51,064 nucleotides of DNA from an uncultured bacterium. GTDB lineage: Bacteria; CSSED10-310; CAZUFC01. Each line of letters starts with the position of its first letter. The first letter of the stretch is position 1. The stretch lies in assembly GCA_964619725.1 (NCBI GenBank), contig CAZUFC010000030.1, positions 19,804 through 70,867 of the forward strand, written 5' to 3'. The translations under genes were made by a program, and so were the position numbers. This document shows, one piece after another, positions 3,886 to 47,000 of the stretch. The notes under the pieces were generated by a model. That model had not been told where the DNA came from, ran no database searches, and worked only from the letters and a program-made list of their open reading frames with translations.

Positions 3886-3928
3886 GGTCTTTCTCCTTTC
3901 CGAGTATGGAAATTTAACCGTCAAAAAT

Positions 3929-6100: not shown

Positions 6101-6886
6101 ATGCTGAGAAGCACAACGGCAATTTACGGATATAAAATTCACGTATTGGACGGCGAACTTGGAAAAGTGCATGATTTCTTTTTCGACGACGAAAAATGGG
6201 TCATTCGTTACCTTGTCGCAGAAACGGGAAGCTGGCTGAACAAAAGAAAAGTCCTTATTTCCACTCACTCACTGGGAAAACCTGACTGGGCTTCCTTCAC
6301 ATTCTTCGTGAACTTGAAAAAGGAACAGGTGGAAAACAGCCCTCCGGTCGATATTGATAAACCGGTTTCCAGGCGTTACGAGGAAAAACTGCACAGTCAT
6401 TTCGGATGGCCGGTCTATTGGGCCGGTACCCTGGCGCCGGGACCGCCGCCCATCAGTCCCGCTTATCCGCCCATTAAATCAAGAGAAAAAAAAGAACCCA
6501 TGACAACGGATAAATTCTCCGACGTGCAAACCCCCGAAACTCCTGAAGAAAAAACCCGCATCAGAAGCATGAAGGAAGTCACGGGATATTACATCGGCGC
6601 CAAAGACGGAGAAATTGGACATGCCGATGATTTCATCGTTAATGACGACGACTGGGGAATTTACTACATGGTCGTGGATACGCGCAACTGGCTTCCCGGA
6701 AGAAAAGTGCTGGTCTCCAGGTCCTGGATCGAAGACATCATCTGGCAGGACAGAAAAATATTCGTGGACCTGCGTCGTGATGCCATCAAAAAGAGTCCCG
6801 AATTCAATCCTTCCGAACCCGTTAACCGGGAATACGAAGCCCGATTATACGACTACTACGGACGGCCGAAATACTGGCAGGAATAA
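6101..6886 (+). CDS. Tandem PRC-barrel domain protein.
   Basis: Two repeats of the PRC-barrel signature (YKIHVLDGELGKVHDFFFDDEKWVIRYLVAE..; YYIGAKDGEIGHADDFIVNDDDWGIYYMVVD..) are separated by a Pro-rich linker. Confidence 0.8.
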   Translation: MLRSTTAIYGYKIHVLDGELGKVHDFFFDDEKWVIRYLVAETGSWLNKRKVLISTHSLGKPDWASFTFFVNLKKEQVENSPPVDIDKPVSRRYEEKLHSHFGWPVYWAGTLAPGPPPISPAYPPIKSREKKEPMTTDKFSDVQTPETPEEKTRIRSMKEVTGYYIGAKDGEIGHADDFIVNDDDWGIYYMVVDTRNWLPGRKVLVSRSWIEDIIWQDRKIFVDLRRDAIKKSPEFNPSEPVNREYEARLYDYYGRPKYWQE

Positions 6887-7057
6887 CGACGGAAGACATT
6901 TCCCATCTTCAGCGATGATACTAAAACGACAACAGGATCGCGCCGATTTTCGGAAATAAAAGGCGATTCTTAGTATCCTAATGGAATATGATTCAGAACT
7001 ATGGTGCATGCTAAAAAATGTCCGAAATCGTCTTATTGTTCGATAAAAATCAAATCG

Positions 7058-9347: not shown

Positions 9348-13125
<3,778 letters not shown>

Positions 13126-13159
13126 GATTCCTCTCCTAAAATAAACGTTTCAGGCAACA

Positions 13160-13197
13160 AACAAAGGGCGCTGACAGAAAAGCGCCTCCGGCTTCCA
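13160..13197 (-). terminator. Candidate intrinsic terminator downstream of atpG.
   Basis: The minus strand reads aggcgcttttctgtcagcgccctttgtttgtt. That is a 5-6 bp GC stem followed by a T-rich tract. The stem is short. Confidence 0.35.
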
Positions 13198-13236
13198 TCC
13201 TCAGATCGGCATTCAGAATCTTCTCCCAATCCCCAA

Positions 13237-14136
13237 TCACTCCGCTCCTCCCTGACTCTCCGTCAAAGCTTCAAAACCGGATACTATATCCAGCAGTTCA
13301 GCGGTTATGGAAGACTGGCGGCGGCGATGATACAGCTTGTTCAATTCCTCCAGCCGGTCATTGATGTTCCTCTCAGCAGCCTGCATGGAAGAAAGCCTGG
13401 CCGCATTCTCCGCGGTCAGTGATTCACTTATCGTCTTGAATAATGTAACGAAAAAATATTCTCTGAGCAAAGCGCGGAAAAGCTGATGCCAATCCATCGT
13501 ATAATCGGGCAGCGTATTTGATTTCCATTCTTTACTTTCCAGCCCTTCCAGCATGCGTTGGTTCAAAGGAAGCAGAAAAGAGATAGCAGGCTCATAGGAA
13601 GCTCCTGGAACCGGTTTATTGTGAAAAAGTATAATCCTGTCCGCCTTATCGAACAAACGCATTTCCTCCATTTCTATGATCAGGCGCCTTAATTTGTCGG
13701 AAAGGTCGGCCAGGGTTCCCGATACGGTGAACTGCTTCTCTGTTTTCAACCCTTCATCTTCCAGCGAACCGGTCACGCGCTCGCCTAATGAGAAGATATG
13801 CACTTTTTCCGGTTGCGCCGACAGTTTTCCTATATTTTCAACTGCGTAGGAGGCGATTTTTTCATTGAATTTGCCGCACATGCCCTGTTCGGAGCCGAAA
13901 ACGACCGCTGCCTCTGTTTTATCGCTCTTCTGTTCATAGAATTTAAAATCCCGGGGTTTGTTTCTCATCAGTATCTGGAACCCCATTTCCACCGTATGGT
14001 AGTAATGATTGAGCGATTCGGCGGCCTTTTCATATCTTGTTATACTGACTGCAGCCAGCGATTTCATTGTTTTTACTACTGAACGGAGTTCTTTGGCGCT
14101 GTTTATTTTGTCTCTTAATTCGTCAAGCTGTTCCAT
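13237..14136 (-). CDS. atpG: N-ATPase (F-type) gamma subunit.
   Basis: The 299-aa ORF is the last gene of the atpDCQRBEFAG cluster. Its C-terminus is typical of a gamma subunit (...AELLDIVSGFEAL). Confidence 0.85.
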   Translation of the reverse strand: MEQLDELRDKINSAKELRSVVKTMKSLAAVSITRYEKAAESLNHYYHTVEMGFQILMRNKPRDFKFYEQKSDKTEAAVVFGSEQGMCGKFNEKIASYAVENIGKLSAQPEKVHIFSLGERVTGSLEDEGLKTEKQFTVSGTLADLSDKLRRLIIEMEEMRLFDKADRIILFHNKPVPGASYEPAISFLLPLNQRMLEGLESKEWKSNTLPDYTMDWHQLFRALLREYFFVTLFKTISESLTAENAARLSSMQAAERNINDRLEELNKLYHRRRQSSITAELLDIVSGFEALTESQGGAE

Positions 14137-14139
14137 AGT

Positions 14140-15711
14140 TCAATTATCTTCTGAATTCCTGCCGGTCATCTGCTCAGCAAATTTTGTCAGTGAATTAATA
14201 TCTTCATCATTCAGGGTTTCGCCTTTTTTGATTTTTCTGCAGATATCGGGACGCTCTTCACTGACGTTCTTTCTGATTTTTTCTTCAGCGTCATAGATTT
14301 CATCCAGTTCCAGCGGGTCAAATACGCCTTGATTGACGGCCGTTATGACGGCTATCTGTTCTGGAACCGTCATGGGATCGAATTCCTTCTGTTTAAGGAT
14401 TTCTCTGACTCGTCTGCCCCTGGCCAGGGTCTTCCGGGTTTCATCATCGAGCCTTGTGCCGAACCTGGCGAAGGATTCGAGTTCTTCAAACTGTGAATAG
14501 GAAAGCCTCAGATCGCCTGCCACGCCGCGATAGGCAGGAAGCTGCGTTTTTCCTCCCACGCGTGAAACCGATCTTCCGACCTCAACAGCCGGCATTCTGC
14601 CTTCCTCGAATAATTTAGGCGAAAGATAAATCTGTCCGTCCGTTATTGATATAAGATTAGTCGGAATATAGGCGGATAAGTTTTCTGCCTGAGTTTCTAT
14701 AATGGGCAAAGCAGTCAACGAACCTCCGCCGTATTCTTCTTTCAGATGAGTGGAACGTTCCAGGAGTCGTGAATGAATATAAAAAATATCGCCCGGATAA
14801 GCTTCCCTGGCCGGCGGACGGCGCAACAGCAGCGAAGCTTCGCGATAAGCCCGGGCATGCCGCGTCAGATCGTCGTAAATCACCAGGGCATCTTTTCCCT
14901 GGTCCATAAAATACTCGCCTATGGTTGTAGCGGCATAAGGAGCCGCAAAGTTCAATCCCGGCGAATCTTCGCCTGTCGCAACCACTACGGCGCTATATTC
15001 CATGGCGCCTCTTTCCTCCAAATCATCAATGACTTTGGCTACGGCTGACGCCCGCTGTCCTATCGCACAATATATGCAGATCACACCCCTCTCTTTCTGG
15101 TTGACGATGGTATCCAGAGCTATTGCCGTCTTGCCTGTCTGACGGTCTCCCAGTATCAGCTCACGCTGGCCTCTTCCCACCGGAATCAGAGCATCCACGA
15201 CTAAAAGGCCGGTCTGCAGAGGAACGCTTACCGGAGCCCGGTCCATTATCGCCGGCGCTTCCTTTTCGGACGGTTTTCTCGTTTCAGCTTTTACCGGTCC
15301 TTTTCCGTCCCGGGGACGCCCCAGCGGATCAATGACCCGGCCCATCAAACCTTCTCCTACCGGTACGTCGAGTATCCTTCCCGTGCGATATACCGGACCG
15401 CCGGCCCTTATGTTCTCGCTTTCATCGAGCAATACGACCGCTATCCTGTCACGGTCAAGATTGAACGCTATTCCCGCCTTATTTCCGGTGAATTCCACGA
15501 TCTCTTCGTAACTGACATTCGGCAATCCCTTCGCCCACACTATGCTGCCGCTTATCGACGTTATTCGGCCTATCTCTTTTTTATGTATACTATATTCATA
15601 CTCCTTCGCTGCCGATGCTACAATTCCGAACGTTTCCTTCAATAATTCGTCAAGTTCCCGTGTGCCGTTTTGATCAATCATTTTATTTACCCGCAACATC
15701 CTGCCGTTCAT
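14140..15711 (-). CDS. atpA: N-ATPase alpha subunit.
   Basis: The 523-aa ORF has the Walker A motif GDRQTGKT and the alpha signature ...DDLT/SKQA. It overlaps atpF by 4 nt. Confidence 0.95.
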
Positions 15712-16463
15712 AGTTTCTCGAATGTCTTGACCGTCTTCTGTTCAAGATCATCCAGGTAATCCTTTAAATTCCATTCATACTTTTTCTCGCCGATTATCAT
15801 CTCAATCCCGCCTACTAAATCCTCCGAAGTCTCAAACTCCAAAAAAACATCAGATGAAAACCTCTCCCGCATATTCTGTCTTACCTCTTCCTTAGCATCC
15901 TCCGACAGCTCGGAACCGCTGATTATCTTTATCTCACGATCGCTGCCCTTTATTTCCCCAATATCTGCTGCAGACTCTTCTTCAGAACTCTCCAGACGGC
16001 CGAACAACTTGCGCACAATCAGACTCTCCAATCTCGAATCGGAAAGCTCCTTCAACGCACGCCCCGAAATGTCGAATACGCCTTCAGCCGCACGAATTCG
16101 CAGCTCATGTAAAAATTCGCTTTTCTGTTTCCGTATGCCTTCCCACATTTTCTCCCTGTTTGCCTCCGCATCCTGCCGCGCTTCTTCCAGCAATCGCTTC
16201 CGCTTTTCTTCCGCTTCCTTTTCCGCTTTTTTCGTCAATTCCTCGCTTTTCGACTCCAATTCCTCTTTCTTTTCCAGGTATTCTTTTTCCGCTTGCTCGG
16301 CTTTTCGCCGCTTTTCTTCAGCCTCTTCAATTTCAGACCTGATCTTTTTCGCCCGGCGGTCCATCACCTCAATGATCCGCTTATACAGAAAATGACGCAA
16401 CAGAAGGATCAGGATTATGAAATTTATGATCTGAGCTATTATGGTGAATAAATCCAGATTCAT
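15708..16463 (-). CDS. atpF: N-ATPase b subunit. It is long and highly charged, and there is no separate delta gene.
   Basis: The 251-aa ORF has an N-terminal TM helix followed by an extended E/K/R-rich helix. No atpH is present in the operon. Confidence 0.8.
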
Positions 16464-16476
16464 TTTAACGCTTCCT

Positions 16477-16746
16477 TCATTGCTGAGTTACATAATTCCA
16501 GAAGGGATTGGCGAAAATGAGTATGATGGCGATTACAAAACAATAGATGGCGGTTGATTCGATCATTGCCAGTCCCACAAACAACGTTCTGGTTATGGTG
16601 TTGGACGCATCGGGCTGCTGCGCTACTGAACGGAGCGCCTGAGCCAGAGCGATCGCCTCGCCTATAGCCGGGCCTATGCTCCCTATCGCTATAGTCAATC
16701 CCGAAATAATAACAGATGCCATGCCGATCACAGTCGCATTATCCAT
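16477..16746 (-). CDS. atpE: N-ATPase c subunit (proteolipid) carrying a complete Na+-binding ligand set.
   Basis: Helix 2 reads LAMIESTAIYCFVIAIILIFANPF, with the E-S-T..Y pattern seen in Ilyobacter tartaricus c. Helix 1 carries an extra Glu (SIGPAIGEAIALAQ) where I. tartaricus has Gln32. I chose the Met start at 16746, which overlaps atpB by 8 nt. Confidence 0.9.
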   Translation of the reverse strand: MDNATVIGMASVIISGLTIAIGSIGPAIGEAIALAQALRSVAQQPDASNTITRTLFVGLAMIESTAIYCFVIAIILIFANPFWNYVTQQ

Positions 16747-17461
16747 TGGATTCTTCTCCTTTCTGTTCATTTTTGGATTCTTTATTCTCTTCTTCTCTGC
16801 GGACTCTGGTGGCGGAAGCGATGTAGACTGCCGCCAGAACGGCGAATATGTAAGCCTGTATCTGTCCTATGATCAGGTCCAGAGCCTGCAGAAGTATTGG
16901 AAAAATTAAAGGCGCTATGCTCACTAATACCGCTACGATAAGGGTCCCGCTCATTACATTCCCGAATAAACGGACTGCCAGCGCCAGAGTCCGGGACAAT
17001 TCTCCGATTATGTTGAATGGAAGCATCAGCATGGTCGGCCTGATGTAAAGCTTTAAATAATTCTTTATTCCCTGCTGCCCTATTCCATAAATCGGTACCG
17101 CAAAAAATACGCATAAAGCCAATGCCGCCGTCGTGTTGATTGAACCCGTCGGCGGTTGATATCCAGGTACGAAACTCAGTAAATTCGATATCGATATATA
17201 CAAAAATAAAGTCCCTAAAAAGGGTAAAAAGGGCATCGGGTTCTGTTCCACAATGTCCTCTATCTGGTCCCGTATAAAACTGACCAGCGATTCCAGAAAA
17301 TGCTGCTTCCGCGATATCTCCGGCTCCACCGATAAATTCCGGGTCGCCAACCAGGCCGAAATCACCAGCGCCGCCATGACCGCCCACGTATATACTATCG
17401 TAGCGCTTAAAGTTATGAATTTCCATTGAAAATATACTATTTCATCAGGAGTTATATTCAT
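16739..17461 (-). CDS. atpB: N-ATPase a subunit.
   Basis: The 240-aa polytopic membrane protein has the conserved a-subunit Arg region (LALAVRLFGNVMSG). Confidence 0.9.
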   Translation of the reverse strand: MNITPDEIVYFQWKFITLSATIVYTWAVMAALVISAWLATRNLSVEPEISRKQHFLESLVSFIRDQIEDIVEQNPMPFLPFLGTLFLYISISNLLSFVPGYQPPTGSINTTAALALCVFFAVPIYGIGQQGIKNYLKLYIRPTMLMLPFNIIGELSRTLALAVRLFGNVMSGTLIVAVLVSIAPLIFPILLQALDLIIGQIQAYIFAVLAAVYIASATRVRREEENKESKNEQKGEESNG

Positions 17462-17462
17462 A

Positions 17463-17774
17463 TCATACTTCCTTCTCCGTCAATTTTCGCATGACAGGCG
17501 GCGGCGAACTCTTTCTGAAGGTCATGACGATCTTTATCACGATAAATCCTCCCAAACAGATCAATAATGGCCGCAATCCCCCCAGGACCGCTGAGAGATA
17601 AAAAACGGCCAGGGCCGTCGCCGTCCTCAGGAAATAACCTGAAATCAAGACTAAATAGGGCTTCTTCAATTCTTTGAAACGACTTATGATCATCCAGAGC
17701 GTTCCGAAATAGAATAAACCTGTTAATAAGCCTGCAATAAAATACATAGAATATTGCAAGTAGATGCTATTCAT
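17463..17774 (-). CDS. atpR: N-ATPase-associated small membrane protein (AtpR-like).
   Basis: The 103-aa ORF has 3 predicted TM helices. Its position immediately upstream of atpB is as expected in N-ATPase operons. It overlaps the antiporter gene by 8 nt. Confidence 0.6.
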   Translation of the reverse strand: MNSIYLQYSMYFIAGLLTGLFYFGTLWMIISRFKELKKPYLVLISGYFLRTATALAVFYLSAVLGGLRPLLICLGGFIVIKIVMTFRKSSPPPVMRKLTEKEV

Positions 17775-19002
17775 TTTGTGCCTCCAGGAAATCAGACCAT
17801 TTATTTAAAAAAAAGCGAACGATAAAAGGCGAAAGCAGGCATGTCAGGGCTGAGACTATGACCATGCCGCCGAAAAGCCTGGGGGGCACGGCCCAATCGC
17901 CCAGTTTTTTTCCATGCTGCATAATGATCATGGCTATTTCAGCCCTGGGGACCATGCTGAATCCGATCAGAACGGCGGCTTTTCGATCTGTAACGAGATA
18001 AGCGAAAATACTTCCTCCTGCTATTTTTCCTATAAAAGCAGCGACGGTAAGGAGCAAACCGACAGCGGCGGCCGCGCCGAGTCCCTCCGGTACGAGGTGT
18101 AATCCTATACCGATAAAGAAAAAAGGTGAAAAAAGCTCATATAAGGGCCTGAATGAACCGGTGATTTTAACTGATTCCGGATCACGGCTGAATGCCAAAC
18201 CGGCAAAAAAGGCCCCTATCGCCACCGAAAAACCCAATAAACCCGCTATGGCGGCGATGATGATGCCTGTTCCCGCTATCAGCAGCATGGGGTCGGGCGG
18301 AGCCTCGATTCTTCTGAAGTATCGGGTGAGCTTTCCTTCCATTTTAATTGAAAATAAATAACAGAGGGCGCCGAATATAAGAAGCTTTAATATAATCAGT
18401 CCTATGGATTTGGACAACAGCACAACCAGTCCGATACCGCTTTCCTGATTCAATACCGGAACTGCAGCGAAAAGAAGGACCATAAAAATGATGCCTAAAA
18501 TATCATCCAGTTCGGCTGTATCGAGTAATAACTCACCGGTGGGCGTTTTCAGTTTTCCCGCTTCTTTCCATATTTGAACCGTTATGCCGACGCTGGTTGC
18601 AACCAGGGCCGCAGCGACGAAAAGAGATGGAATGGTAGAAAAACCGCAAATATGCCGGGCTGTTACATATCCGACGACTGCGGGTATCAGCGTGTTGCCC
18701 GTGCATATGAATCCGGCTCGTTTTATCTGGCTCAGCAGCTCTGAAATATTGCCTTCCAGCCCAATGTGAAACAGAAGAACGATAACGCCCATTTTAGCTA
18801 AAAACTCAAATATTTCTTCTCCTGCAGCAGAAAGAAACCCCAGTTGGTGATCGGCCAGTCGAAGGAGAAAACCGATGAGGATATAACCGACCAGGGAAGG
18901 GACGCTGATGCGCTCAAGTAAAGATTTGAAAAGGATAGCCAATACGATCAGCGTTCCGACCAGCGTTATCATTATGATGACTTCACCGCCGGCATCAATC
19001 AT
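17767..19002 (-). CDS. Cation:proton antiporter of the Na+/H+ exchanger family (CPA1/CPA2 superfamily), embedded in the N-ATPase operon.
   Basis: The 411-aa ORF has about 11-12 predicted TM helices and a typical Na_H_exchanger fold pattern. Its start overlaps the atpQ stop by 8 nt and its stop overlaps the atpR start by 8 nt. Confidence 0.8.
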   Translation of the reverse strand: MIDAGGEVIIMITLVGTLIVLAILFKSLLERISVPSLVGYILIGFLLRLADHQLGFLSAAGEEIFEFLAKMGVIVLLFHIGLEGNISELLSQIKRAGFICTGNTLIPAVVGYVTARHICGFSTIPSLFVAAALVATSVGITVQIWKEAGKLKTPTGELLLDTAELDDILGIIFMVLLFAAVPVLNQESGIGLVVLLSKSIGLIILKLLIFGALCYLFSIKMEGKLTRYFRRIEAPPDPMLLIAGTGIIIAAIAGLLGFSVAIGAFFAGLAFSRDPESVKITGSFRPLYELFSPFFFIGIGLHLVPEGLGAAAAVGLLLTVAAFIGKIAGGSIFAYLVTDRKAAVLIGFSMVPRAEIAMIIMQHGKKLGDWAVPPRLFGGMVIVSALTCLLSPFIVRFFLNKWSDFLEAQNE

Positions 19003-19303
19003 GTCGACTCTCCCTTTTAACCCAGCGCCAGGCGTTTAAACAGCCCAAAGCCACTCCTATCGACAGGAAAGTCAAAGTCCAGGATACGGAACCGTCCGTT
19101 TCGGCATCGAGCCACAAACCTACGGCGAGTCCGATCAGCGTCGGTATCACGACAGACCAGCCGATTATGCCGAACATGCCCAGGCCGTACCAGAGGCTTT
19201 TTTCCTTTTCACGTCGCGCCTTTAATTTACGGCTTTCTTCCTTTCCTATTTCTTCTGAGAATTCTTCAGCGTTTCTTTGTTCGTCATTTTTTTCTTCGTT
19301 CAT
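18995..19303 (-). CDS. atpQ: N-ATPase-associated small membrane protein (AtpQ / AtpZ/AtpI-like).
   Basis: The 102-aa ORF has a charged N-terminus and two TM helices. It sits after atpC as in N-ATPase operons. Confidence 0.6.
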   Translation of the reverse strand: MNEEKNDEQRNAEEFSEEIGKEESRKLKARREKEKSLWYGLGMFGIIGWSVVIPTLIGLAVGLWLDAETDGSVSWTLTFLSIGVALGCLNAWRWVKRESRHD

Positions 19304-19306
19304 TTT

Positions 19307-21198
<1,892 letters not shown>

Positions 21199-21316
21199 TT
21201 ACAATAAGCCACGGCAAAAATATTGACTAACAGATATTACAGTCAAATTAGAAATATTTCGAATTTTATTTTGAAATTTTTCGAAATATCGCACGATCTC
21301 TGGACTGAACAGAACA

Positions 21317-21506
21317 AACCGGGCTTATACCTCCTTCAGAACTCATGACAGTTTGTTTCAGTAATCGGGGTCGGGATCGGGATAGCTATCGGGATCGGGG
21401 TCGCTATCGGTATCGCTATCGCTATCGGGATCGAGATAGCTATCGGTATCGGTATCGGGGTCGCTATCGAGATCGGTTTCAAAGCAAAATGATGGGAGAG
21501 TTTTTA
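21317..21506 (+). repeat. Family B MITE-like element with the longest core: L arm, about 20 (NTCGGN) hexamers, then R arm.
   Basis: The L arm ends ..cagaactcatgacagtttgtttcagtaatc. The core reads ggggtcgggatcgggatagctatcgggatcggggtcgctatcggtatcgctatcgctatcgggatcgagatagctatcggtatcggtatcggggtcgctatcgagatcgg. The R arm starts tttcaaagcaaaatgatgggagag. Confidence 0.85.
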
Positions 21507-21735
21507 TACCAGAAGAAAGCATTGACTTGAAGGCTAATCAGCGCTGCTTAATTCGCATTGACTGTAAACCAAAACAAAAGAGCGATACGAAAAAGAAAAT
21601 TCTCAATAAAATTGCCTCGCGGGCAAAAGATTTGGGGATTTCAGATTTAGCGGCTCAACATGACCACTATTTATACGGAACGGAAAAATGATGACTATTC
21701 CGATATTTCTGGATATTGGCTATATCCTCGCTTTG

Positions 21736-22617
21736 TTAAATACACATGACGAATTTAATTCTTTGAAGGTAAACTGATCGGGTTGCACACCGGATTGCAT
21801 TAATAAAGTACCTTACCGTGAATATTTTTCTGGCGTTGAGCAGAAACGTCCGATGTCCTGCATTGGGAAAGTCATCGTCCAACTTGAAATTTTCAAAAAA
21901 AGTTTTGTCGGGCAGGATATTCTCCAGTAATTTTCTCAATCCGGGTTTATCCCATTGACTATCTGCCGTATCGTAAATCTTCTTTCCTTTGATGTCGTCC
22001 GGGATTAACTGAAAAATCTTATAAAATGACCTGTTGGCGGAAAGTATATTCAAATCCTCATCCAGAATAATCAAGGGCTCCCGCACTGTATCCACTATGG
22101 ATTCAGCGTAATTCTTCGCCTGTTTTTCCCCTTCAACGGACTCCTGAAGCTCCTGCTTCTTTTCAATCTTTTCCGTAACTTCCAGGAAAGTGATCACTAC
22201 GCCGTCCATGATGTCTTCTGTCGTCAAATAGGGAGAGATTCTTATCTGATAATATTCTCCATTTATGGTTTCCACATCTTTCTTTATTGCCTGAAGCGAA
22301 TCTAGAACAAGGCGAATATCATCGTACATTTCCGGATATCTTAACTTGGTGGCGATGTGATCTACGGGACGCCCCATATCCTCTTCAATCAGTTGTATCA
22401 ATTTTTTGGCGGAATTGGAAAACTGTCTTATGCACATGTTTTTGTCCAGAATAAGAAATCCGAATTCAGGACAGTTCATGAGATTTTTAAGATCACTTTT
22501 AACGCTATCCACTTCTTCCAGCTTGTTTTCCAGTTCCGCATTAACCGTCATCAATTCCTCATTAACGCTGTGTAACTCCTCCTTCGACGTCTCAAGCTCT
22601 TCATTGGAACTCTGCAA
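21736..22617 (-). CDS. PAS-domain protein whose N-terminal coiled-coil carries an SNEELxxxxEEL signature, as found in CheR/CheB-PAS fusion linkers. It has no output domain.
   Basis: The N-terminus reads QSSNEELETSKEELHSVNEELMTVNAELENKLEEV and is followed by two PAS-like segments. The ORF-track start is a TTG directly after the stop of the receiver gene. The C-terminal roughly 30 aa look like read-through into the intergenic region. Confidence 0.55.
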   Translation of the reverse strand: MQSSNEELETSKEELHSVNEELMTVNAELENKLEEVDSVKSDLKNLMNCPEFGFLILDKNMCIRQFSNSAKKLIQLIEEDMGRPVDHIATKLRYPEMYDDIRLVLDSLQAIKKDVETINGEYYQIRISPYLTTEDIMDGVVITFLEVTEKIEKKQELQESVEGEKQAKNYAESIVDTVREPLIILDEDLNILSANRSFYKIFQLIPDDIKGKKIYDTADSQWDKPGLRKLLENILPDKTFFENFKLDDDFPNAGHRTFLLNARKIFTVRYFINAIRCATRSVYLQRIKFVMCI

Positions 22618-23044
22618 TTCCTTCAGGCCGGAGTATCTTATGAATGGTTTCCATCATTTGATCCATGTCAGGAGGTTTGCGAAAGACCGCTGCAGGGGCC
22701 GTTTTCCGCATGACTTCTTCAGGCAGTTTGGTGGAAATGGCGGTGAGATAAATTAAAGCTGTTTTGCTTTTTTCCTGGATGATGGAAGCGGCTTTCAAAC
22801 CGTCTAATTCTTCCGCCAGCAATATATCCATAATTATCAGGTCCGGCGTCTCTTTTTCGGCTAACTCTACCGCCTCCTCACCCGTCAAAGCCGTCATCAC
22901 CTCGTAGTCGCAATCCTCCAACATCATTTTCAGCCCGGCCGATATGATCGTTTCATCCTCAACGATCAGTATGCTTGGTTTGTTTCCTTTCGTCATATTA
23001 TTTCTCCGGGAATGTAATACAAAATTCGGTTCCCTTTTCTCCAA
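22601..23044 (-). CDS. Stand-alone CheY-like response regulator receiver domain.
   Basis: The 147-aa ORF contains ILIVEDE...DLIIMDILL...GL. It overlaps both flanking genes. Confidence 0.85.
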   Translation of the reverse strand: MEKREPNFVLHSRRNNMTKGNKPSILIVEDETIISAGLKMMLEDCDYEVMTALTGEEAVELAEKETPDLIIMDILLAEELDGLKAASIIQEKSKTALIYLTAISTKLPEEVMRKTAPAAVFRKPPDMDQMMETIHKILRPEGIAEFQ

Positions 23045-24128
23045 TTATTTTTATCGTTCCTCTCAGTTGCGAAACAAGCAATTGAACTATCTTAAGTCCC
23101 AACGATTCTGTTTTCTGAATGTCGAAATCCTCCGGCAAACCCTGGCCCCTGTCCTCTACGCGCAATTCGTAATTATCCCCTTTCTTCCCAAAATCCAGAA
23201 TCATAACATGGTCCTCTTCGTTTCCGTCATCCTTATACGCATGTTTCAGGACGTTCGTCGCCAGTTCATTTATGATCATCCCTGCAGGAATAGCCTTATC
23301 CATTTCCATACGAAAATCTTTCACGTTCAACCTGATATCGAGCTTGCGCCGGTGAGAATTTAAAAATACCGTCAGTAAAGCTTCCACATATTGTTTTATG
23401 TCGATGTCCGTCAGGTTTTCCGTCCGGTGAAGCAGTTCATGAACTAAAGCTATCGAACGTATGCGATCCTTACAGTTCCTAAACAGCTCCAGAACCTCCT
23501 CATCTTTTACTCCACGTGCATGCAACGTCAACAATCCGTTTATTATCGCCAGATTGTTGTTCACCCTGTGATGCAGCTCCTTCAACAGCAGATTCTTCTC
23601 CTCCAATTCCTGCTTCAACCTCTCTTCAGTCTCTGCCAGTTCAGTTATATCCGTCACCGCCGTCATGACTTGACGTCCGTTATCGTCTCCCCCGGTATTC
23701 AATACGCTTTCCAGGCGTAAAAAACGAGTCCTCTTGTCCCTGCCCCTCGTTTTTACGCGGATTATCTGTCTTTTCCCGGTTCTTAACGCTTTATGATGAT
23801 GCAACAGTATCGCCTTTTCAAATTCTTTATCGCAAAATACCGAAAAAGATTTGCCTGAAATATCGGATTTCAACATCCCAAGCATTCTCGCCGCCGTCTC
23901 GTTGATCTTCGTTATCGCGCCCCTCTCATCGCTCGTATAATAACCGATAGGCGCAGATTCATATAATTCCTCATACTCCGCCTTCGACTTCTCCAGCAAT
24001 GACTGAGCCTCACGTAAAGACTCATTCTGCATGTCCAGCTCAACCTGATGCACCTGCAACTCATGGATTACTTCTTCTAACGATTCCACGGTCTCGTCTG
24101 CAGGCATCTTTGATGACAGTTTTTCCAA
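22998..24128 (-). CDS. PAS-domain sensor histidine kinase of the HisKA_2 type.
   Basis: The 376-aa ORF has a PAS domain, an H-box ELHHRVNNNLAIINGLL (HisKA_2/HWE-like) and a HATPase_c domain (ELATNVLKHAY...DRGQGLPEDF). Confidence 0.85.
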   Translation of the reverse strand: MEKLSSKMPADETVESLEEVIHELQVHQVELDMQNESLREAQSLLEKSKAEYEELYESAPIGYYTSDERGAITKINETAARMLGMLKSDISGKSFSVFCDKEFEKAILLHHHKALRTGKRQIIRVKTRGRDKRTRFLRLESVLNTGGDDNGRQVMTAVTDITELAETEERLKQELEEKNLLLKELHHRVNNNLAIINGLLTLHARGVKDEEVLELFRNCKDRIRSIALVHELLHRTENLTDIDIKQYVEALLTVFLNSHRRKLDIRLNVKDFRMEMDKAIPAGMIINELATNVLKHAYKDDGNEEDHVMILDFGKKGDNYELRVEDRGQGLPEDFDIQKTESLGLKIVQLLVSQLRGTIKIIGEKGTEFCITFPEK

Positions 24129-28415: not shown

Positions 28416-29780
28416 ATGGCGAAAGAAATAAAACTTCCGGAAATATCGGAGAACATTCATGAGGCTGAAGTGGTTGAAGTATTGGTATCCGAAGGGGACC
28501 AGGTGAAGAAGGATCAGGCCGTGGCTGAAATGGAAACGGAAAAATCGATATTCGAGATACCGTCGCCTTCTGCGGGCAAAATAACCGAACTCGCCATAAA
28601 AAAAGGCGATACGGTCAAAGTGGGCGATCTGATAGCCCGGCTTGATACGGAAGAGGAAGTTGAAGAGGAAGAACCTCCGGAAACCGAAAAAACGGAACGC
28701 AAAAGAGAGAAAAAACAGGCAGCACCTGAAGAGGAAGAACCGACGGAGCCCGAAGAAGAACCGAAGGAACCTGAAGCAGAACCGGAAGAAGAAAAAGAAA
28801 AGGAGGAGGAGAGAGTTGAATCCGGGAAAGAAGAAGAGGTCAAAGAAGTAAAGAAGCAGAAGGAGTCTGAGCGAGAGGAGCCAGAAAGAGGCCCGGCTCC
28901 AGCAGCGCCGTCGGTGCGCCGGCTGGCGGCGGAACTCGGTATAGAGATACATGATGTCCGGGGTTCAGGACCAGGAGGCCGGATAACCCGCGACGACGTA
29001 AAATCACATACCCGCGAGTTGATTGAAAGCCCGGCCGGTCAGGAACATAAGCGATTGCCTGATTTTTCCCAATGGGGTCCGGTGCATCGGGAACCCATGA
29101 GCAAGGTCAGGCGCATAACCGCCGAAAGCATGTCTTACTCCTGGAGGACTGTTCCTCATGTGACTCAGTTCAGCAAAGCGGACGTCACGTCAGCCGAAGA
29201 ATTCCGGAAAAAAAATACGGAGAGGGCGAAAAAGGAAGGCGGCAAACTGACGTTGACCTCTATTCTGATAAAGCTGTCGGCGCTGGCGTTACAGCGGTTT
29301 CCCCGTTTCGGCGCTTCGCTGGACGAGCAGAATCAGGAATTAATATATAAAGATTACATTCACATAGGTTTTGCCGTGGATACGGACCGCGGGTTGCTGG
29401 TACCGGTGATCAGGGATGCCGACAAAAAGGACATTTACAAATTATCGGCAGAAGTTTCGGGTCTGGCGGAAAAGGCCAAGAACAAAAAGATATCGCCAGA
29501 TGAGATGGAAGGCGGTTGTTTCACCGTCTCCAATCTGGGCGGCATAGGCGGAACAAATTTCACGCCCATTGTTTATGCTCCGCAAGCTGCTGTCCTGGGC
29601 GCAGACCGCGCCGAAATGATGCCGGTATACGAAAACGGCGAATTTCATCCTCGCCTGATGTTGCCTCTTTCCCTGTCTTACGATCACAGGATCATTGACG
29701 GCGCTGACGGAGCCAGATTCATGCAATGGATGAAAAACGCTCTGGAGAACCCGTTATCGATACTGCTGGAAGGAGAATGA
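28416..29780 (+). CDS. 2-oxoacid dehydrogenase E2 (dihydrolipoamide acyltransferase) with lipoyl, E/K-rich linker, PSBD and catalytic domains.
   Basis: The lipoyl Lys is in AEMETEKSIFEI. The peripheral subunit-binding domain is PSVRRLAAELGIEIHDVRGSGPGGRITRDD. The C-terminal catalytic motif is DHRIIDGADGARF. Confidence 0.95.
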   Translation: MAKEIKLPEISENIHEAEVVEVLVSEGDQVKKDQAVAEMETEKSIFEIPSPSAGKITELAIKKGDTVKVGDLIARLDTEEEVEEEEPPETEKTERKREKKQAAPEEEEPTEPEEEPKEPEAEPEEEKEKEEERVESGKEEEVKEVKKQKESEREEPERGPAPAAPSVRRLAAELGIEIHDVRGSGPGGRITRDDVKSHTRELIESPAGQEHKRLPDFSQWGPVHREPMSKVRRITAESMSYSWRTVPHVTQFSKADVTSAEEFRKKNTERAKKEGGKLTLTSILIKLSALALQRFPRFGASLDEQNQELIYKDYIHIGFAVDTDRGLLVPVIRDADKKDIYKLSAEVSGLAEKAKNKKISPDEMEGGCFTVSNLGGIGGTNFTPIVYAPQAAVLGADRAEMMPVYENGEFHPRLMLPLSLSYDHRIIDGADGARFMQWMKNALENPLSILLEGE

Positions 29781-29783
29781 ACC

Positions 29784-31229
29784 ATGCCTGACATTCAGAA
29801 GACCGAAGTAGCTGTTATCGGCGCCGGTCCTGGGGGTTATGCGGCGGCTTTTCTGTCTGCAGACCTGGGGATGCGAACCGTCATGATTGACCCTTTGCCG
29901 AATCCGGGCGGCGTATGTCTGTTTCGAGGCTGCATCCCTTCGAAAGCATTACTGCACGTGGCCCGTCAAATCAGGGAAGCCGGAACGGCCGAAAAATTCG
30001 GGCTTCATTTCGGAGAACCTGAAATAAAAATCGATCAGATAAGGGACTGGAAAAATGATACAGTGAAAAAACTGACGGAAGGTCTCGGACTCCTGGCCAG
30101 ACAAAAGAAGGTGAAGCATCTCCGGGGCAAAGCCCGTTTTTTGGATTCTCACTCAATTGAAATCGAAACTTCTGATAATTCCGGCAAACAAAAACTCCAA
30201 TACGATCACGCCATACTCGCTACGGGAGGATATCCCGCCAAACTGCCCGGAATTGAACTCGAATCCGACAGAATCTGGTATTCCTCCGAAGCGCTGGATG
30301 TTCCTCAAATACCTGAAACGCTGCTCGTCGTCGGAAGCGGGTACATCGGCCTGGAGTTGGGGACGTTCTACGCTGCCTTAGGCGCTCGAGTTACCCTGAT
30401 AGAGATCATGCCGGGAATACTGCCGGGCATCGACCGTGACCTGACGGATACTTTCCTGAAAGCGAACGAAAATTTGTTCGAGAATATTTATACTTCAACC
30501 AGAATCGCGGATGTTAAAGAAAAAAACGGAAAACTCGACGTTTTCTTTGAAAGCGAAAACGGCAACGCTCCTCAATCCGCCTCTTTTGACAATATACTTG
30601 CCGCAATCGGCAGGAAACCCTATACATCCGGCCTGGATTTGGACAATACAAAGGTTGAATTGAACGAACGGGGATATGTCAAGGTCAATAAGCAAAGGCA
30701 AACGGACGATCCGGCCATTCATGCCGTCGGAGACCTGACCGGCGATCCCCTCCTGGCGCACAAGGCTACACACGAAGGCCGCACCGCAGCCGAGGACATC
30801 GCAGGATTAACGACTTTTTTCGATCCTGCAGCCATACCCGCAGTGGAATATACCGATCCCGAAATTGCGGTATGCGGGTTGTCCGAAACCGAAGCCGAAC
30901 AGCAGAACAAAAAAATAGAAACCGCGAAATTCCCCTGGCAGGCTTCCGGCAGGGCCCTCACCATGGGCAGAAATCATGGACTCACTAAACTGATAATCGA
31001 TCCCGATACAGAACGCATTCTGGGTATGGGCATAGTGGGAGCGGACGCCGGAGAACTTATCTCCGAAGGGGTTCTGGCGATTGAAATGGCTGCTGTGGTC
31101 AAAGACCTGGCCCTTTCCATCCATCCGCACCCCACGTTATCCGAAACGCTGATGGAGGCGGCGGAAGCCTACTACGGAAAAAGCACGCACTTTCACGGTA
31201 AAAGGAGACGGCGAAAGAAGAAAAAATGA
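29784..31229 (+). CDS. lpdA: Dihydrolipoyl dehydrogenase (E3).
   Basis: The FAD motif is VIGAGPGGYAAA and the redox-active disulfide is GGVCLFRGCIPSK. The C-terminal HP..E motif (HPHPTLSE) is present. There is an unusual polybasic C-terminal tail, GKRRRRKKKK. Confidence 0.9.
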   Translation: MPDIQKTEVAVIGAGPGGYAAAFLSADLGMRTVMIDPLPNPGGVCLFRGCIPSKALLHVARQIREAGTAEKFGLHFGEPEIKIDQIRDWKNDTVKKLTEGLGLLARQKKVKHLRGKARFLDSHSIEIETSDNSGKQKLQYDHAILATGGYPAKLPGIELESDRIWYSSEALDVPQIPETLLVVGSGYIGLELGTFYAALGARVTLIEIMPGILPGIDRDLTDTFLKANENLFENIYTSTRIADVKEKNGKLDVFFESENGNAPQSASFDNILAAIGRKPYTSGLDLDNTKVELNERGYVKVNKQRQTDDPAIHAVGDLTGDPLLAHKATHEGRTAAEDIAGLTTFFDPAAIPAVEYTDPEIAVCGLSETEAEQQNKKIETAKFPWQASGRALTMGRNHGLTKLIIDPDTERILGMGIVGADAGELISEGVLAIEMAAVVKDLALSIHPHPTLSETLMEAAEAYYGKSTHFHGKRRRRKKKK

Positions 31230-31313
31230 ATTCTGCGTCAAAAAAAGAGTTCGCAATGAAGATAAATCGAAAAACGTATTCATCTATAGAGAAAACATCC
31301 AAGGAGGATATAA

Positions 31314-32072
31314 ATGAATGACGAAATGAAAGGTAAAGTATTTCTGGTAACAGGAGGAAGCACGGGAATAGGAAAAGCGGCAGCTCTCGCTTTCGCACGA
31401 AACGGGGCCGATGTGGTCGTTGCTGACGTACAGGAAAAAAAGGGATTGTATACTGTCGAGGAAATTCAGGATATGGACCGAAGAGCAATTTACGTGCAAA
31501 CGGACGTTTCACAGGTCGAACAGGTTGAAAACATGATCACAAAGACCCTGGATGAATTCGGACGGCTGGATTACGCTTTCAACAATGCGGGGATCGAGGG
31601 GGAGCAGGCGCCCACGGCAGAATGCACCGAAGGGAACTGGGACAGGGTGATCAACATAAACCTTAAAGGCGTATGGCTTTGCATGAAATATGAGATACCG
31701 GAGATAGTGAAACAGGGAGGAGCCATCGTCAACAACTCCTCTGTCGCAGGGAAAGTAGGCTTCATAAACATTCCTGCTTACACGGCAAGTAAACACGGCG
31801 TACTGGGACTGACCAAGGCTGCGGCGCTTGAATATGCGAATCGGGGTATTCGCATCAATGCGGTATGTCCCGGAATAATCGCCACTGAAATGATCGAGCG
31901 TTTCACGCAAAACAATGAAGAAGTGAGAAAAGAACTTCTTGCGACAGAACCCATCGGACGAATGGGCAAACCGGAAGAAGTGGCGGACGTCGTGCTGTGC
32001 CTGTGCTCAGAAAGAGCATCCTACATCACGGGTCATGCCCTTAATGTGGACGGCGGATACGTTTCCCGCTGA
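31314..32072 (+). CDS. Short-chain dehydrogenase/reductase (SDR) family oxidoreductase.
   Basis: The Rossmann motif is TGGSTGIGKAAA and the catalytic residues are NNSS..Y..ASK (YTASKHG). Confidence 0.9.
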   Translation: MNDEMKGKVFLVTGGSTGIGKAAALAFARNGADVVVADVQEKKGLYTVEEIQDMDRRAIYVQTDVSQVEQVENMITKTLDEFGRLDYAFNNAGIEGEQAPTAECTEGNWDRVININLKGVWLCMKYEIPEIVKQGGAIVNNSSVAGKVGFINIPAYTASKHGVLGLTKAAALEYANRGIRINAVCPGIIATEMIERFTQNNEEVRKELLATEPIGRMGKPEEVADVVLCLCSERASYITGHALNVDGGYVSR

Positions 32073-32214
32073 TTACGCGAAAAAGCGTTCGCCGGCCTGC
32101 AATGCCCTGATATTGAATTAGGGTTTTTCATAAAGAAGGCTGCTCGTATTTCACGAAATGGAGTCAGTAGCCGTCGCTGCAATAAAATCAGCAAATGACA
32201 TTCAAGGAGAAAAT

Positions 32215-44099: not shown

Positions 44100-47000
44100 A
44101 TGGAAGTATCCGTATTGGGATATCTTTTGCGTACTAGACGAAAAAACATTTTGATCACAGGAATGAAAAGCGACACAATGAATCATAAAGAAGAAAAAAT
44201 AAAATTCAGTTACAGGGAATCGGGAATAATAATCCTGGCATTCGGCGCATTATATCTCATCAGCCGTTATAATTATTTGCTGTTTCATACATTATCGGAG
44301 GGGTTCAGCATAGCTATTGCTCTGGCCATATTCATTTTTGCCTGGCATTCCCATCGGATGATGAAAAACGATTTCTTCACGGTAATCGGGGTAGCTTACT
44401 TATTCGTCGGTTTGCTCGATCTGCTGCATACCCTGGCTTACCCCGGCATGAGCGTGCTGGCCGGTTCATCCACAGATTTGGGCGCTCAGCTATGGATATC
44501 TGCCCGTTTTATGGAAGCGGCTTCGCTGGGAATAGCCCTATTTTTTCTGAAACGCCGGACGAACAGGGAACTGATTTTCACAATTTACGCCCTCGTAACC
44601 GCGCTGCTCATCACCACCGTTTTCACCGGTTTCATGCCGGCCTGTTTTGTTGAAGGACAAGGGCTGACTCCTTTTAAGACAACCGTCGAATATCTCATCT
44701 GCTTTATTTTAGCTGCTGCCGCTTTTTTTCTTTATAAAAACCGTGAAGCCATTGATCACAGCGTTTTCATTCTCATTTTTGCTTCCCTGCTGGTCACTGC
44801 TCTCGCTGAAATCCTTTTTTCTTTCTACTCGAATCCTTACGACCTGGCCAATCTCTCGGGACATTTTCTTAAAATAATTTCTTTTTATTTAATTTACAAA
44901 GCCATAATATGGGTAGGTTTCACCACGCCCTTCGGACTTCAGTTCCGTGAACTCCGCCAGAATGAAGAAAAACTGAGAAAGGCCCTGGCGGAAAGAGAAG
45001 CCGCTCAAAGAAAAACAAAACGGGAACAGGGTAAATTCCTCAATATTCTGGACAGCATAAAAGATGGGATTTACATGGTTGATTCGGAATGCAACGTCGT
45101 ATATGTGAATCCGGTCATTAAACGGGAATTCGGCATGGTTGACGAAAAAAAGTGCTATGAATACCTGAACGGCCTGAGAGAACAATGCCCCTGGTGCAAT
45201 ATGGACAAAGTTATGAGCGGGGAAACCGTACGATGGGAATGGGAGGTCCCGGAAACGGGAAAAATTTATGATATTATAGAATCGCCGGTGACAGACTCCG
45301 ACGGAAGCATGTTGAAACTCAAAATACTGCGTGACGTCACGGAAATGAAGCACGCCGAGCAGCAGATCCGCGAAAGCGAAGAACGATATGATCTCATACT
45401 TGATAGCGTGGAATTGGGCATATGGGATTGGGACCTGCAGAAAAACACAGTAGTATGGAACAAACAGATGTACGGTCTTCTAGGGATGACTCCCCATCAT
45501 GGCGAAACAGACCCGGATATCTTTTTTGAACGCATTCACTCCGAAGACAGAGAGCGTATCCAACAAGAAGTGAAGTCTCTTCTGGCAAACGGCCATTTTC
45601 TGGATACGGAATTAAGAGTCTTAACGTCGGAAGGTGAAACGCTCTGGCTCAAAAGCAAGGGTAAACTTTACCGGAATGAAGAGGGAGAGCCGGTCAGGCT
45701 GCTCGGCGTCAATTATGATATTACTGCAGCAAGGGAAGCTGAAGAAACGATTAAAAGTTTATCGCGTTTTCCTGAAGAAAACGCCAATCCAGTTCTCCGA
45801 GTCAGCCTGGATGCGAAGCTGATGTATGCGAACAAGGCGGCAGCTCCTTTACTGGAAGGCTGGGGCATTGACGTTGGTGAAGAAGTTCCCTCATTCATCA
45901 ATGAGCAGATAGAATCCGCATTCAAGCAAAAATCTGTGGAGAGTTTTGATTTCCAGATTGGAGAGCTTCATTTTACGATTTCCTGTGTTCCTATACTTCA
46001 GGCAAAATACGCGAATCTTTACGGCATGGATATTACGGAAAAGAAAATAATAGAGCAACGGGAAAAGGAAGCCGCTGCCCTGGCGACTGCTTCAAAAACT
46101 GCGCTCGATGCCATGCAGGCTATGGGTGAAGGAATAGCCGTAATTCAATTGGATGGAACCATAACTTCGGTCAATCCGGCTCTGACCCGTTTAATCGGTT
46201 ATGAGGCGAACGAATTGCTGGGATGGAATATTGAAGAAATATTACCTAAATTATTTAAAGAGTATAGCCTGCAGACGACTTCCGAAGCCTGGATGAAACT
46301 GAAGCAGGGGCAGGCGCCCGTGAATCCGCCTATCAATATTATTCCTAAATCAGGAACGTCCAAAAGCGTACTGCCGACTGTTTCCTTCATTAGAAAAGAA
46401 AACAATGAACCTATTGCCGTAGTGCTTTCACTCAAAGATATTTCTCCCATACTCAAAATGCAGGAAGAATTGAAGCAGAGCGAGAAACTTTTCCGTCTGC
46501 TTGCTGAAACGATTGAAGACGTTTTCTGGATGCGTTCCACGGACTTTGAAGAGATTCTTTATGTCAGTCCGGCATACGAGAAAATCTGGGGACGCAGCCG
46601 GGAAAGCCTATACAAGGCCCCGCACTCATTGATCGATTCGGTATATCCTGGAGATCGCGATAAACTTACGTCAAAAATGTCCCGTAGACTTGACGAAGTT
46701 CAACGACTGGAATACCGCATAATTCGTCCTGACGGAGAGATCAGGTGGATACGGGACCGCACATTTCCCGTCACTGATGAAAATGATGAACAAATCGGCA
46801 CAGTAGGCAATTCGACCGACATAACCGACCTGATTGATATCCAGAATTCACTGGAAAAAAGCAAAATAATGCTGGACGAGGCTCAACGGATCGCCCATCT
46901 GGGCAACTGGGAATGGGATTTAATCACGGACGAGATCACCTGGTCTGATGAAACTTATAAGATTCTAGGTTTTGAATCAGGTAAAGCTCGCCCTGCCTAC

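Follow-up and report, generated by a model that had tools for sequence, protein, structure and literature searches.

A predicted Na+/H+ antiporter gene embedded between atpQ and atpR in an N-type rotary ATPase operon

The stretch of DNA analyzed here (the window) comprises 51,064 nucleotides of a contig from an uncultured bacterium (GTDB lineage Bacteria; CSSED10-310; CAZUFC01; GenBank assembly GCA_964619725.1, contig CAZUFC010000030.1, positions 19,804 to 70,867 of the forward strand). According to its open reading frames (ORFs) and their Pfam and NCBIfam matches, it carries on the minus strand, at 21072-13237, a complete operon for an N-type rotary ATPase (N-ATPase). Its ten closely packed genes follow the order atpD-atpC-atpQ-[antiporter]-atpR-atpB-atpE-atpF-atpA-atpG, that is, the N-ATPase order plus one extra gene, which encodes a 411-aa cation:proton antiporter of the CPA2 group (Table 1). 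In a genome, an N-ATPase always accompanies a canonical F- or A/V-type ATP synthase as a second enzyme; no other ATPase genes are found elsewhere in the 51-kb window.

An earlier reading of the letters alone, without database searches (the sequence-only reading), had proposed this gene order, had assigned the 411-aa ORF to the cation:proton antiporter (CPA) superfamily, and had described 8-nt overlaps at both of its ends. All three statements are borne out. The order is confirmed by Pfam, by the atpQ and atpR families, and by the curated "alternate F1F0 ATPase" models, whose cut-offs are passed by the beta, alpha, gamma, a, c, and epsilon subunits, while the b subunit falls marginally below. 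There is no separate delta gene (no atpH ORF) within the cluster; the C-terminus of AtpF resembles OSCP/delta (PF00213, residues 176-242, E=5e-6), pointing to a b-delta fusion, which is usual in N-ATPases (ProAD 2025 paper). The profile search places the antiporter in PF00999 over its full length. The overlaps are exact: the atpQ stop and the antiporter start share 8 nt that read ATGATTGA, with GGGAG 8 nt upstream, and the antiporter stop and the atpR start share another 8 nt that read ATGAATAG, with GGAGG upstream. As judged from these junctions, translation of the antiporter gene is coupled to that of atpQ and of atpR alike, and the gene is an integral member of the operon.

Table 1. Genes and putative signals of the window's N-ATPase operon, in the direction of reading
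Feature	Position	Strand	Evidence and remarks
Promoter-like site 5' of atpD (TTGACT, 16-18 nt spacer, AATATT/TATTTT)	21217..21246	-	consensus scan
atpD, F1 beta	19681..21072	-	TIGR03305 "alternate F1F0 ATPase beta", 799.7 bits vs cut-off 752; PF00006
atpC, epsilon	19307..19684	-	TIGR03166, 137.7 bits vs cut-off 100.1; PF02823; 4-nt overlap with atpD stop
atpQ, small two-helix membrane protein, AtpZ/AtpI-like	18995..19303	-	PF09527, E=3e-15; TIGR02230, E=2e-37, above cut-off
Antiporter, NapA-like CPA2 cation:proton, 411 aa, ATG start	17767..19002	-	PF00999, E=2.5e-44, residues 20-401
atpR, N-ATPase-specific small membrane protein	17463..17774	-	PF12966, E=1.4e-16; TIGR03165, 57.2 bits vs cut-off 55.5
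atpB, Fo a subunit	16739..17461	-	TIGR03306, 324.7 bits vs cut-off 302.1
atpE, c subunit	16477..16770	-	TIGR03322, 145.5 bits vs cut-off 130.85
atpF, b subunit, 251 aa	15708..16463	-	PF00430; TIGR03321, 215.1 bits, just under cut-off 224.7
atpA, alpha	14140..15711	-	TIGR03324, 794 bits vs cut-off 750.5
atpG, gamma, final operon gene	13237..14136	-	TIGR03323, 314.4 bits vs cut-off 282.35
Terminator-like GC-rich hairpin and T-rich tail, 50 nt past atpG stop, GGCGCTTTTCTGTCAGCGCC CTTTGTTTGT	13167..13186	-	consensus scan

The start of the first gene requires a correction. As listed, the atpD ORF ends at 21180 and is over-extended: the ATG at 21072 is preceded 5 nt upstream by a strong Shine-Dalgarno sequence (AAGGAGGA), and the TIGR03305 match, counted in the listed ORF, opens at residue 49, a point 12 residues past this ATG, which is almost certainly the true start. 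The promoter-like and terminator-like sites are both positioned suitably for the start and the end of the operon. Antisense and alternative-frame ORFs also overlap the atp genes, including a 214-aa frame inside atpB (16782-17426, minus strand) and many on the plus strand across 13000-21200; these long overlapping ORFs, without family support, are by-products of composition and not genes.

Both the rotor and the inserted transporter carry motifs that bear on the ion they handle. The translated AtpE (...GPAIGEA...MIESTAIYCF...) contains a Glu in helix 1 (PAIGE) and ESTAIY in helix 2, and the combination of helix-1 Glu and ESTxxY in the c subunit defines Na+-type N-ATPases (Dibrova, Galperin & Mulkidjanian 2010, PMC2881411). 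In the antiporter, the ion site consists of A135-T136-S137-V138, T162 at motif position 5, D166-D167, and K326, together with R353/E355. An alignment of 18 homologues from different phyla shows A135, S137, V138, D166, D167, and K326 to be invariant and T136 to be conserved in at least 90%. The markers of the CPA1 group are missing (motif position 5 lacks Glu and position 8 lacks Arg). In the eight-position CPA motif, D at position 6 and K at position 8 denote electrogenic exchange and a non-polar residue at position 4 denotes Na+ selectivity (Masrati et al. 2018, PMC6181914).

Among proteins of solved structure, the antiporter finds sequence matches only in Thermus NapA (4BWZ/5BZ2/5BZ3; E=2e-33), collinear over residues 19-404 at 27-28% identity, with D166/D167, K326, and R353/E355 aligned to D156/D157, K305, and R331/E333 of NapA. 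An AlphaFold2 model of the antiporter (predicted local distance difference test 79, predicted template-modelling score 0.82) leads to the same protein in a Foldseek search, in which NapA 4BWZ and 5BZ2 are the best matches (template-modelling (TM) scores 0.70-0.85; 5BZ2 at 0.80/0.85). The two proteins thus share full-length collinearity, the NhaA/NapA-type fold of 13 helices with its pair of crossing discontinuous helices, and the ATSV, DD, K, and R..E residues of the ion site. These features predict an electrogenic Na+/H+ exchanger of the NapA type and not of the Kef type, and taken together with the c-subunit signature they lead to the prediction that both genes handle Na+. The subfamily nevertheless has traits of its own unlike NapA: its members measure about 405-415 aa, are at least 44% identical among those compared, and in over half of the species sampled are part of an N-ATPase operon. 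NapA is encoded by a stand-alone gene.

The recurrence of the arrangement was surveyed from the antiporter side by scanning an antiporter alignment over one genome per GTDB species and mapping the ten proteins of the window on the 80 closest loci (labeled L with a number below). More than 2,000 homologues exist; the best share 48-58% identity, measure about 400-425 aa, and belong to cyanobacteria, Desulfobacterota, Aminicenantes, Zixibacteria, KSB1, and others. The antiporter is embedded between atpQ and atpR/atpB at 45 of the 80 loci: at 43 it comes straight after atpQ and is followed by atpR/atpB or by the contig end, and at two (L071, L080) the contig begins within the antiporter and runs on into atpR or atpB. 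Four further loci have it beside an N-ATPase operon without embedding, and at about 30 it stands alone. The embedded hosts span at least nine phyla, with Cyanobacteria (a Pleurocapsa homologue occupies the same atpQ|atpR slot), Desulfobacterota, Bacteroidota (including Salinivenus and Balneolaceae), Zixibacteria, Ignavibacteria, Calditrichota, Planctomycetota (Ca. Loosdrechtia), Hydrogenedentota, and one alphaproteobacterial metagenome-assembled genome (MAG) among them.

The conservation extends to the gene junction itself. The 8-nt overlap of atpQ and the antiporter, RTGANTGA, is identical in 41 of 47 embedded loci, and the ribosome-binding site for the antiporter is formed by conserved C-terminal codons of AtpQ (…W-x-x-x-E-S…). 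Across phyla, this junction is thus a homologous one maintained by selection, and since slot and junction recur in 45 other species-level genomes, the arrangement is not due to chance. The proposal of the sequence-only reading that the antiporter is an integral, translationally coupled member of the operon is much strengthened by this conservation of slot and 8-nt junction in at least nine phyla. The junction with atpR is looser (-4, +2, -8 nt, and others). A second inserted gene was considered in Coleofasciculus, where about 390 nt separate the antiporter from atpR, and was rejected, as this gap contains no convincing ORF. Some loci differ at the head of the operon: three from Desulfobacteraceae MAGs (L036, L048, L067) have a ppsA-like gene directly before atpC and no beta-subunit match in the locus despite the presence of atpA and atpG, and atpD is also away from its usual place in the embedded loci L026, L040, and L056, lying 4.6 kb upstream of atpC in L040.

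A different picture is obtained from the pump side. The sample came from a scan of JGI metagenomes with a c-subunit alignment, limited to 600 pattern matches and ranked by similarity to the c subunit of the window, a ranking that should, if anything, favour embedded operons. The antiporter is present in none of the 52 N-ATPase operons of this sample that cover the atpQ-atpB interval (95% upper bound about 6%); in these, the gap from the atpQ match to atpB, atpR included and never measured from atpC, is 260-683 nt, which leaves no room for it. By contrast with the 27 of 49 non-embedded N-ATPase operons that carry ESTxxY, all 40 embedded operons with a readable c subunit do so (Fisher p=1.4e-7, not corrected for phylogeny), and 39 of the 40 also have the helix-1 Glu. 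The embedded arrangement is a minority form, confined in this sample to Na+-type operons. Insertions are also seen at other positions of N-ATPase operons, between atpC and atpQ or between atpD and atpC (L106, 5783-6649; L147, 4128-6263; L040, 1677-6342), showing that the operon tolerates insertion elsewhere.

The history of the insertion was approached with neighbour-joining trees, without support values. Those of AtpA, AtpD, AtpB, and AtpG mix embedded and non-embedded operons, and that of the antiporter mixes embedded and stand-alone copies; a single clean clade for the embedded operons was sought and recovered in none of the five (best F1 0.55-0.73). With such interleaving, one ancient gain followed by many losses and the spread of an atpQ-antiporter cassette by recombination are indistinguishable, although the homologous junction argues that the junction itself arose once. 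Pairwise distances of the antiporter and AtpA correlate (r=0.80, n=34), and both may merely follow the host phylogeny. One locus of Desulfatitalea alkaliphila (L064) retains, at 6850-6990, a relic of the 3' end of atpQ (…NAWYGIDRESRHD…; profile E=3.4e-8) directly upstream of an antiporter that stands alone, the nearest 7 kb being free of other atp genes. At least one stand-alone antiporter thus apparently came from an embedded copy, junction included. A profile search for a hidden atpQ before the stand-alone homologues found this truncated relic as its single case, so AtpQ and the antiporter do not form a general two-gene module outside the operon.

Several stand-alone copies have other pumps as neighbours. 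P-type ATPases (E1-E2_ATPase with Cation_ATPase_N and _C domains) lie on the same strand just downstream of the antiporter in L033 (6716-9502), L035 (8688-11270), and L064 (8217-10946), and divergently from it in L051 and L060, so that members of this antiporter lineage tend to be found beside ATP-driven cation pumps, which belong to two unrelated classes. A second recurrent neighbour is a gene of about 790-830 aa resembling phosphoenolpyruvate (PEP) synthase, the copies being 54-73% identical to that of L033. It lies directly upstream of the N-ATPase operon on the same strand at 12 of 33 embedded and 2 of 17 non-embedded loci. Such genes stand upstream of atpD/atpC in L004, L008, L022, L023, L031, L036, L038, L048, L053, L058, L067, and L084, and upstream of stand-alone antiporters in L015, L033, L061, and L069. 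Stand-alone or adjacent copies are followed by genes for glyceraldehyde-3-phosphate dehydrogenase (L061) and phosphoglycerate mutase (L044). These PEP-synthase and glycolytic neighbours may tie the system to the metabolism of PEP or of ATP made at substrate level; the window itself contains no PEP-synthase-like gene.

Compared with the canonical N-ATPase operon atpDCQRBEFAG (Dibrova 2010), the operon of the window shares the gene order, with beta first, gamma last, no delta, and atpQ and atpR before atpB, as well as the two Glu and ESTxxY of the c subunit and the match of all subunits to the "alternate F1F0" models. It differs in having a tenth gene where the canonical operon has nothing between atpQ and atpR. 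An identical architecture occurs on plasmid pREB4 of Acaryochloris marina MBIC11017, annotated as atpD-atpC-AtpZ/I-[antiporter WP_012167720.1, 48% identical]-"ATP synthase subunit I" (atpR)-a-c-b-alpha-gamma. It shares the same 8-nt overlap of atpQ and the antiporter, whereas its overlap with atpR is 4 nt and the operon resides on a conjugative cyanobacterial plasmid beside hox/hyp hydrogenase genes and ppsA. Dibrova 2010 (PMC2881411) mentions a "single gene insertion" in the Acaryochloris marina N-ATPase operon, which is most likely this antiporter gene. The suggestion that the combination had not been described for this operon type consequently holds in part: it was already annotated on pREB4 and likely noted as an insertion in 2010, but the gene was never named or discussed in the literature searched. 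This comprised N-ATPase surveys, ProAD, and papers on the Burkholderia c-ring, Acaryochloris comparative genomics, and the Halothece, PCC 7002, Nitrospira, and Futiania genomes; Swingley 2008, Soontharapirakkul 2011, and the supplement of Dibrova 2010 lay outside this scope, and an earlier mention there is possible. The main text of an Acaryochloris RNA-seq paper holds nothing gene-specific on the operon. The embedded arrangement has been visible in public genomes since 2008, yet it is uncharacterised. The survey for embedded PF00999 genes that the sequence-only reading had put forward, with common and catalogued insertions as the outcome that would speak against novelty, gives a mixed answer: the insertion is recurrent as seen from the antiporter, rare among N-ATPase operons, and uncatalogued.

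A precedent for the pairing of a secondary transporter with a rotary Na+ pump is known from the ntp operon of Enterococcus hirae (ntpFIKECGABDHJ). As in the window, the gene of a secondary cation transporter belongs to the operon of a Na+-pumping rotary ATPase; ntpJ (KtrB) shares a transcript with the V-type Na+-ATPase genes, Na+ and alkaline pH induce it, and its function does not depend on the pump (PMC12604602, citing Takase 1994 and Murata 1996). The differences are that the pump is of the V type, that NtpJ is a K+ uptake subunit of the Trk/Ktr family instead of a CPA2 antiporter, and that ntpJ is the last gene and not embedded between genes for assembly factors. In E. faecalis, ntpJ is located elsewhere in the genome.

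The explanation favoured here, with moderate confidence, is that the operon encodes a Na+-translocating N-type rotary ATPase that acquired and keeps a NapA-like electrogenic Na+/H+ antiporter as a co-regulated partner. The same arrangement in at least nine phyla suggests that pump and antiporter are one functional unit, and by gene context and motifs they probably act together in salt and pH homeostasis. Under salt and/or alkaline stress the operon would be transcribed, and the N-ATPase would hydrolyse ATP and expel Na+ electrogenically, generating a potential that is negative inside. This potential would drive the antiporter, with a predicted exchange of 2 H+ in for 1 Na+ out, to export more Na+ and import H+. 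In sum, two Na+ would be expelled and two H+ imported per pumped Na+ in a nearly electroneutral process. Such ATP-powered Na+/H+ exchange would not require a respiratory proton motive force and would be useful at high salt, at high pH, and in anaerobes. With a high ion-to-ATP ratio a pump is prone to stall under electrical back-pressure, which the antiporter would also relieve; the only N-type rotor solved is the c17 ring of Burkholderia (PMC5376962), and a large ring of this kind is taken here to imply many ions per ATP and hence a low stalling voltage. Because of the E. hirae ntpJ precedent, the antiporter is considered most likely to be a separate co-regulated partner and not a physical subunit.

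Several points weigh against this explanation. As the antiporter is lacking in all 52 operons of the pump-side sample, Na+-type operons among them, the pump does not require it, and as about a third of the closest antiporter homologues stand alone, the antiporter does not require the pump. Its ion specificity and stoichiometry are predictions from motifs, and NHA2 also has the DD pair and is reported to be electroneutral. The c17 stoichiometry is that of the Burkholderia enzyme. High salinity did not raise the N-ATPase transcripts of Synechococcus PCC 7002 (PMC3468840), and the salt-stress role of N-ATPases is itself unsettled. Finally, we infer co-transcription of the ten genes from their packing, and since promoter-like and terminator-like sites are no more numerous in the region than in shuffled sequences, those of Table 1 serve as positional hints only.

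Other explanations deserve to be weighed against the favoured one. CPA antiporters are inherently reversible, and the exchanger could run the other way, letting pumped Na+ back in and expelling H+, so that ATP hydrolysis would sustain a Na+ cycle and, through it, H+ extrusion or a proton motive force. The purpose would be acid resistance or the energising of H+-coupled transport in fermenting anaerobes. Many hosts are indeed anaerobic (Desulfobacterota, Zixibacteria, and Aminicenantes-like lineages), and the PEP-synthase-like genes, with the glycolytic genes at stand-alone loci, hint at substrate-level ATP. Expelling H+ through a 2H+:1Na+ exchanger, however, moves net positive charge out against the potential made by the pump itself, which is unfavourable unless the Na+ gradient is very large. 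Moreover, where the name of a host tells of its habitat, this is mostly marine, saline, or alkaline (Salinivenus, Balneolaceae, Desulfatitalea alkaliphila, marine cyanobacteria), a setting that calls for Na+ export and H+ capture. This direction of transport is therefore considered unlikely. A role in K+ homeostasis, in which a Kef/KEA-like K+/H+ exchanger tunes K+ and pH while the pump removes Na+, is improbable on different grounds. JGI labels many homologues "Kef-type K+ transport system membrane component KefB", the antiporter matches TIGR00932 (CPA2), and the glutathione-gated KefC of Escherichia coli (8BXG), with which it shares the CPA2 superfamily and the fold, is the second-ranked structural match of its model (TM score 0.75). 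The KefB, KefC, and YbaL equivalog models match it weakly, though, with 21-35 bits against cut-offs of 700-800. KefC is electroneutral and K+-selective, with a strictly conserved QD and a C-terminal RCK domain (PMC11150392), its Q155D variant loses K+ binding (PMC11150392), and Kef/KEA proteins have L-S-S-T in the unwound transmembrane segment (PMC11150392, PMC6181914). The antiporter of the window has DD in place of QD and ATSV in place of LSST, and hence no T at motif position 4; PF00999 is its sole Pfam match, and the protein ends at residue 411 directly after the last transmembrane helix, so that an RCK/KTN domain is absent. Of the "Na+(K+)/H+" specificity allowed for by the sequence-only reading, the Na+/H+ part is thus favoured by the motifs and by NapA as the closest structure, while the K+ part finds no match in them, and the "KefB" label generically given to this subfamily is probably a misannotation.

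The remaining two alternatives concern the bond between the genes. If the conserved overlaps serve to fix a stoichiometry, a NapA-like dimer might be docked to the membrane sector of the N-ATPase via AtpQ and/or AtpR, and local ion exchange within this supercomplex would make it a single ATP-driven Na+/H+ exchanger, a hybrid of primary and secondary transporter. The extreme conservation of the atpQ/antiporter junction, the unvarying slot between two accessory membrane proteins, and the unassigned function of AtpQ (PMC5376962) speak in its favour. Stand-alone homologues without atpQ, on the other hand, occur often and fall among the embedded ones in the tree, the antiporter is missing from most N-ATPases, NapA-type antiporters work as homodimers alone (PMC11150392), and NtpJ, the closest precedent, does not depend functionally on its ATPase. 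Physical association is accordingly judged distinctly improbable. The opposite extreme, a mobile insertion functionally unrelated to the pump, could draw on the lateral transfer of N-ATPase operons and their tolerance of insertions elsewhere (Dibrova 2010, PMC2881411; L040, L106, L147), and on the interleaving of embedded and non-embedded forms in the AtpA and antiporter trees. A neutral passenger would hardly persist across at least nine phyla, in at least 45 species, with its ORF intact, its catalytic residues invariant, and its coupling junction conserved, nor be associated exclusively with Na+-type c subunits; the window, in addition, shows no flanking transposase or repeat. This last alternative is very improbable.

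Immediately upstream of atpD on the same strand, the window encodes a PAS/HisKA_2 (HWE-type) histidine kinase (22998-24128), a lone receiver-domain protein (22601-23044), and a PAS_10/PAS protein (21736-22617). These genes (21736-24128, minus strand) are possible regulators of the operon. A response regulator also adjoins the operon at the Acaryochloris plasmid locus. Between the upstream PAS gene and the promoter region lies a degenerate tandem array of ATCGGG-like hexamers (21364-21476; about 19 copies, 71-84% matches), from which a false, RDRYRY-rich plus-strand ORF (21345-21530) results. Elsewhere, the window (28416-34890, plus; 1447-3924, minus; 44100-47960, plus) encodes a pyruvate dehydrogenase complex (E2, E3, and AceE-type E1), a LonC-like protease, and a 1286-aa MASE3/PAS histidine kinase. 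With LigA and PolX of bacterial kind, the gene context is bacterial, and an archaeal origin of the Methanosarcina type, which had been considered, is rejected on the evidence of these genes; the best relatives of LigA are bacterial MAGs at 63-69% identity, indicating a poorly sampled lineage. An Rfam scan of the window gave no RNA gene over threshold.

The arrangement does not represent a new kind of system, as both protein families are known and a transporter gene in the operon of a rotary Na+-ATPase has a precedent in ntpJ. If a physical supercomplex did exist, it would constitute a hybrid primary/secondary transporter of a new class. The operon definition of ProAD 2025 (beta-epsilon-X-X-a-c...) allows only two genes between epsilon and a, and catalogues using it may miss or misfile the three-gene variant. 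Cultured hosts of the variant are available in Acaryochloris marina MBIC11017, Mastigocoleus testarum BC008, and Phormidium sp. CCY1219. The role of N-ATPases has been open since 2010, with Na+ export, H+ export, and salt or acid tolerance under consideration. A variant in which the Na+-type enzyme always comes together with an antiporter predicted to exchange Na+/H+ electrogenically constitutes a natural experiment on the purpose of the pump and its limits, and the conservation of the coupled antiporter across phyla, in Na+-type operons only, offers a testable handle on N-ATPase function.

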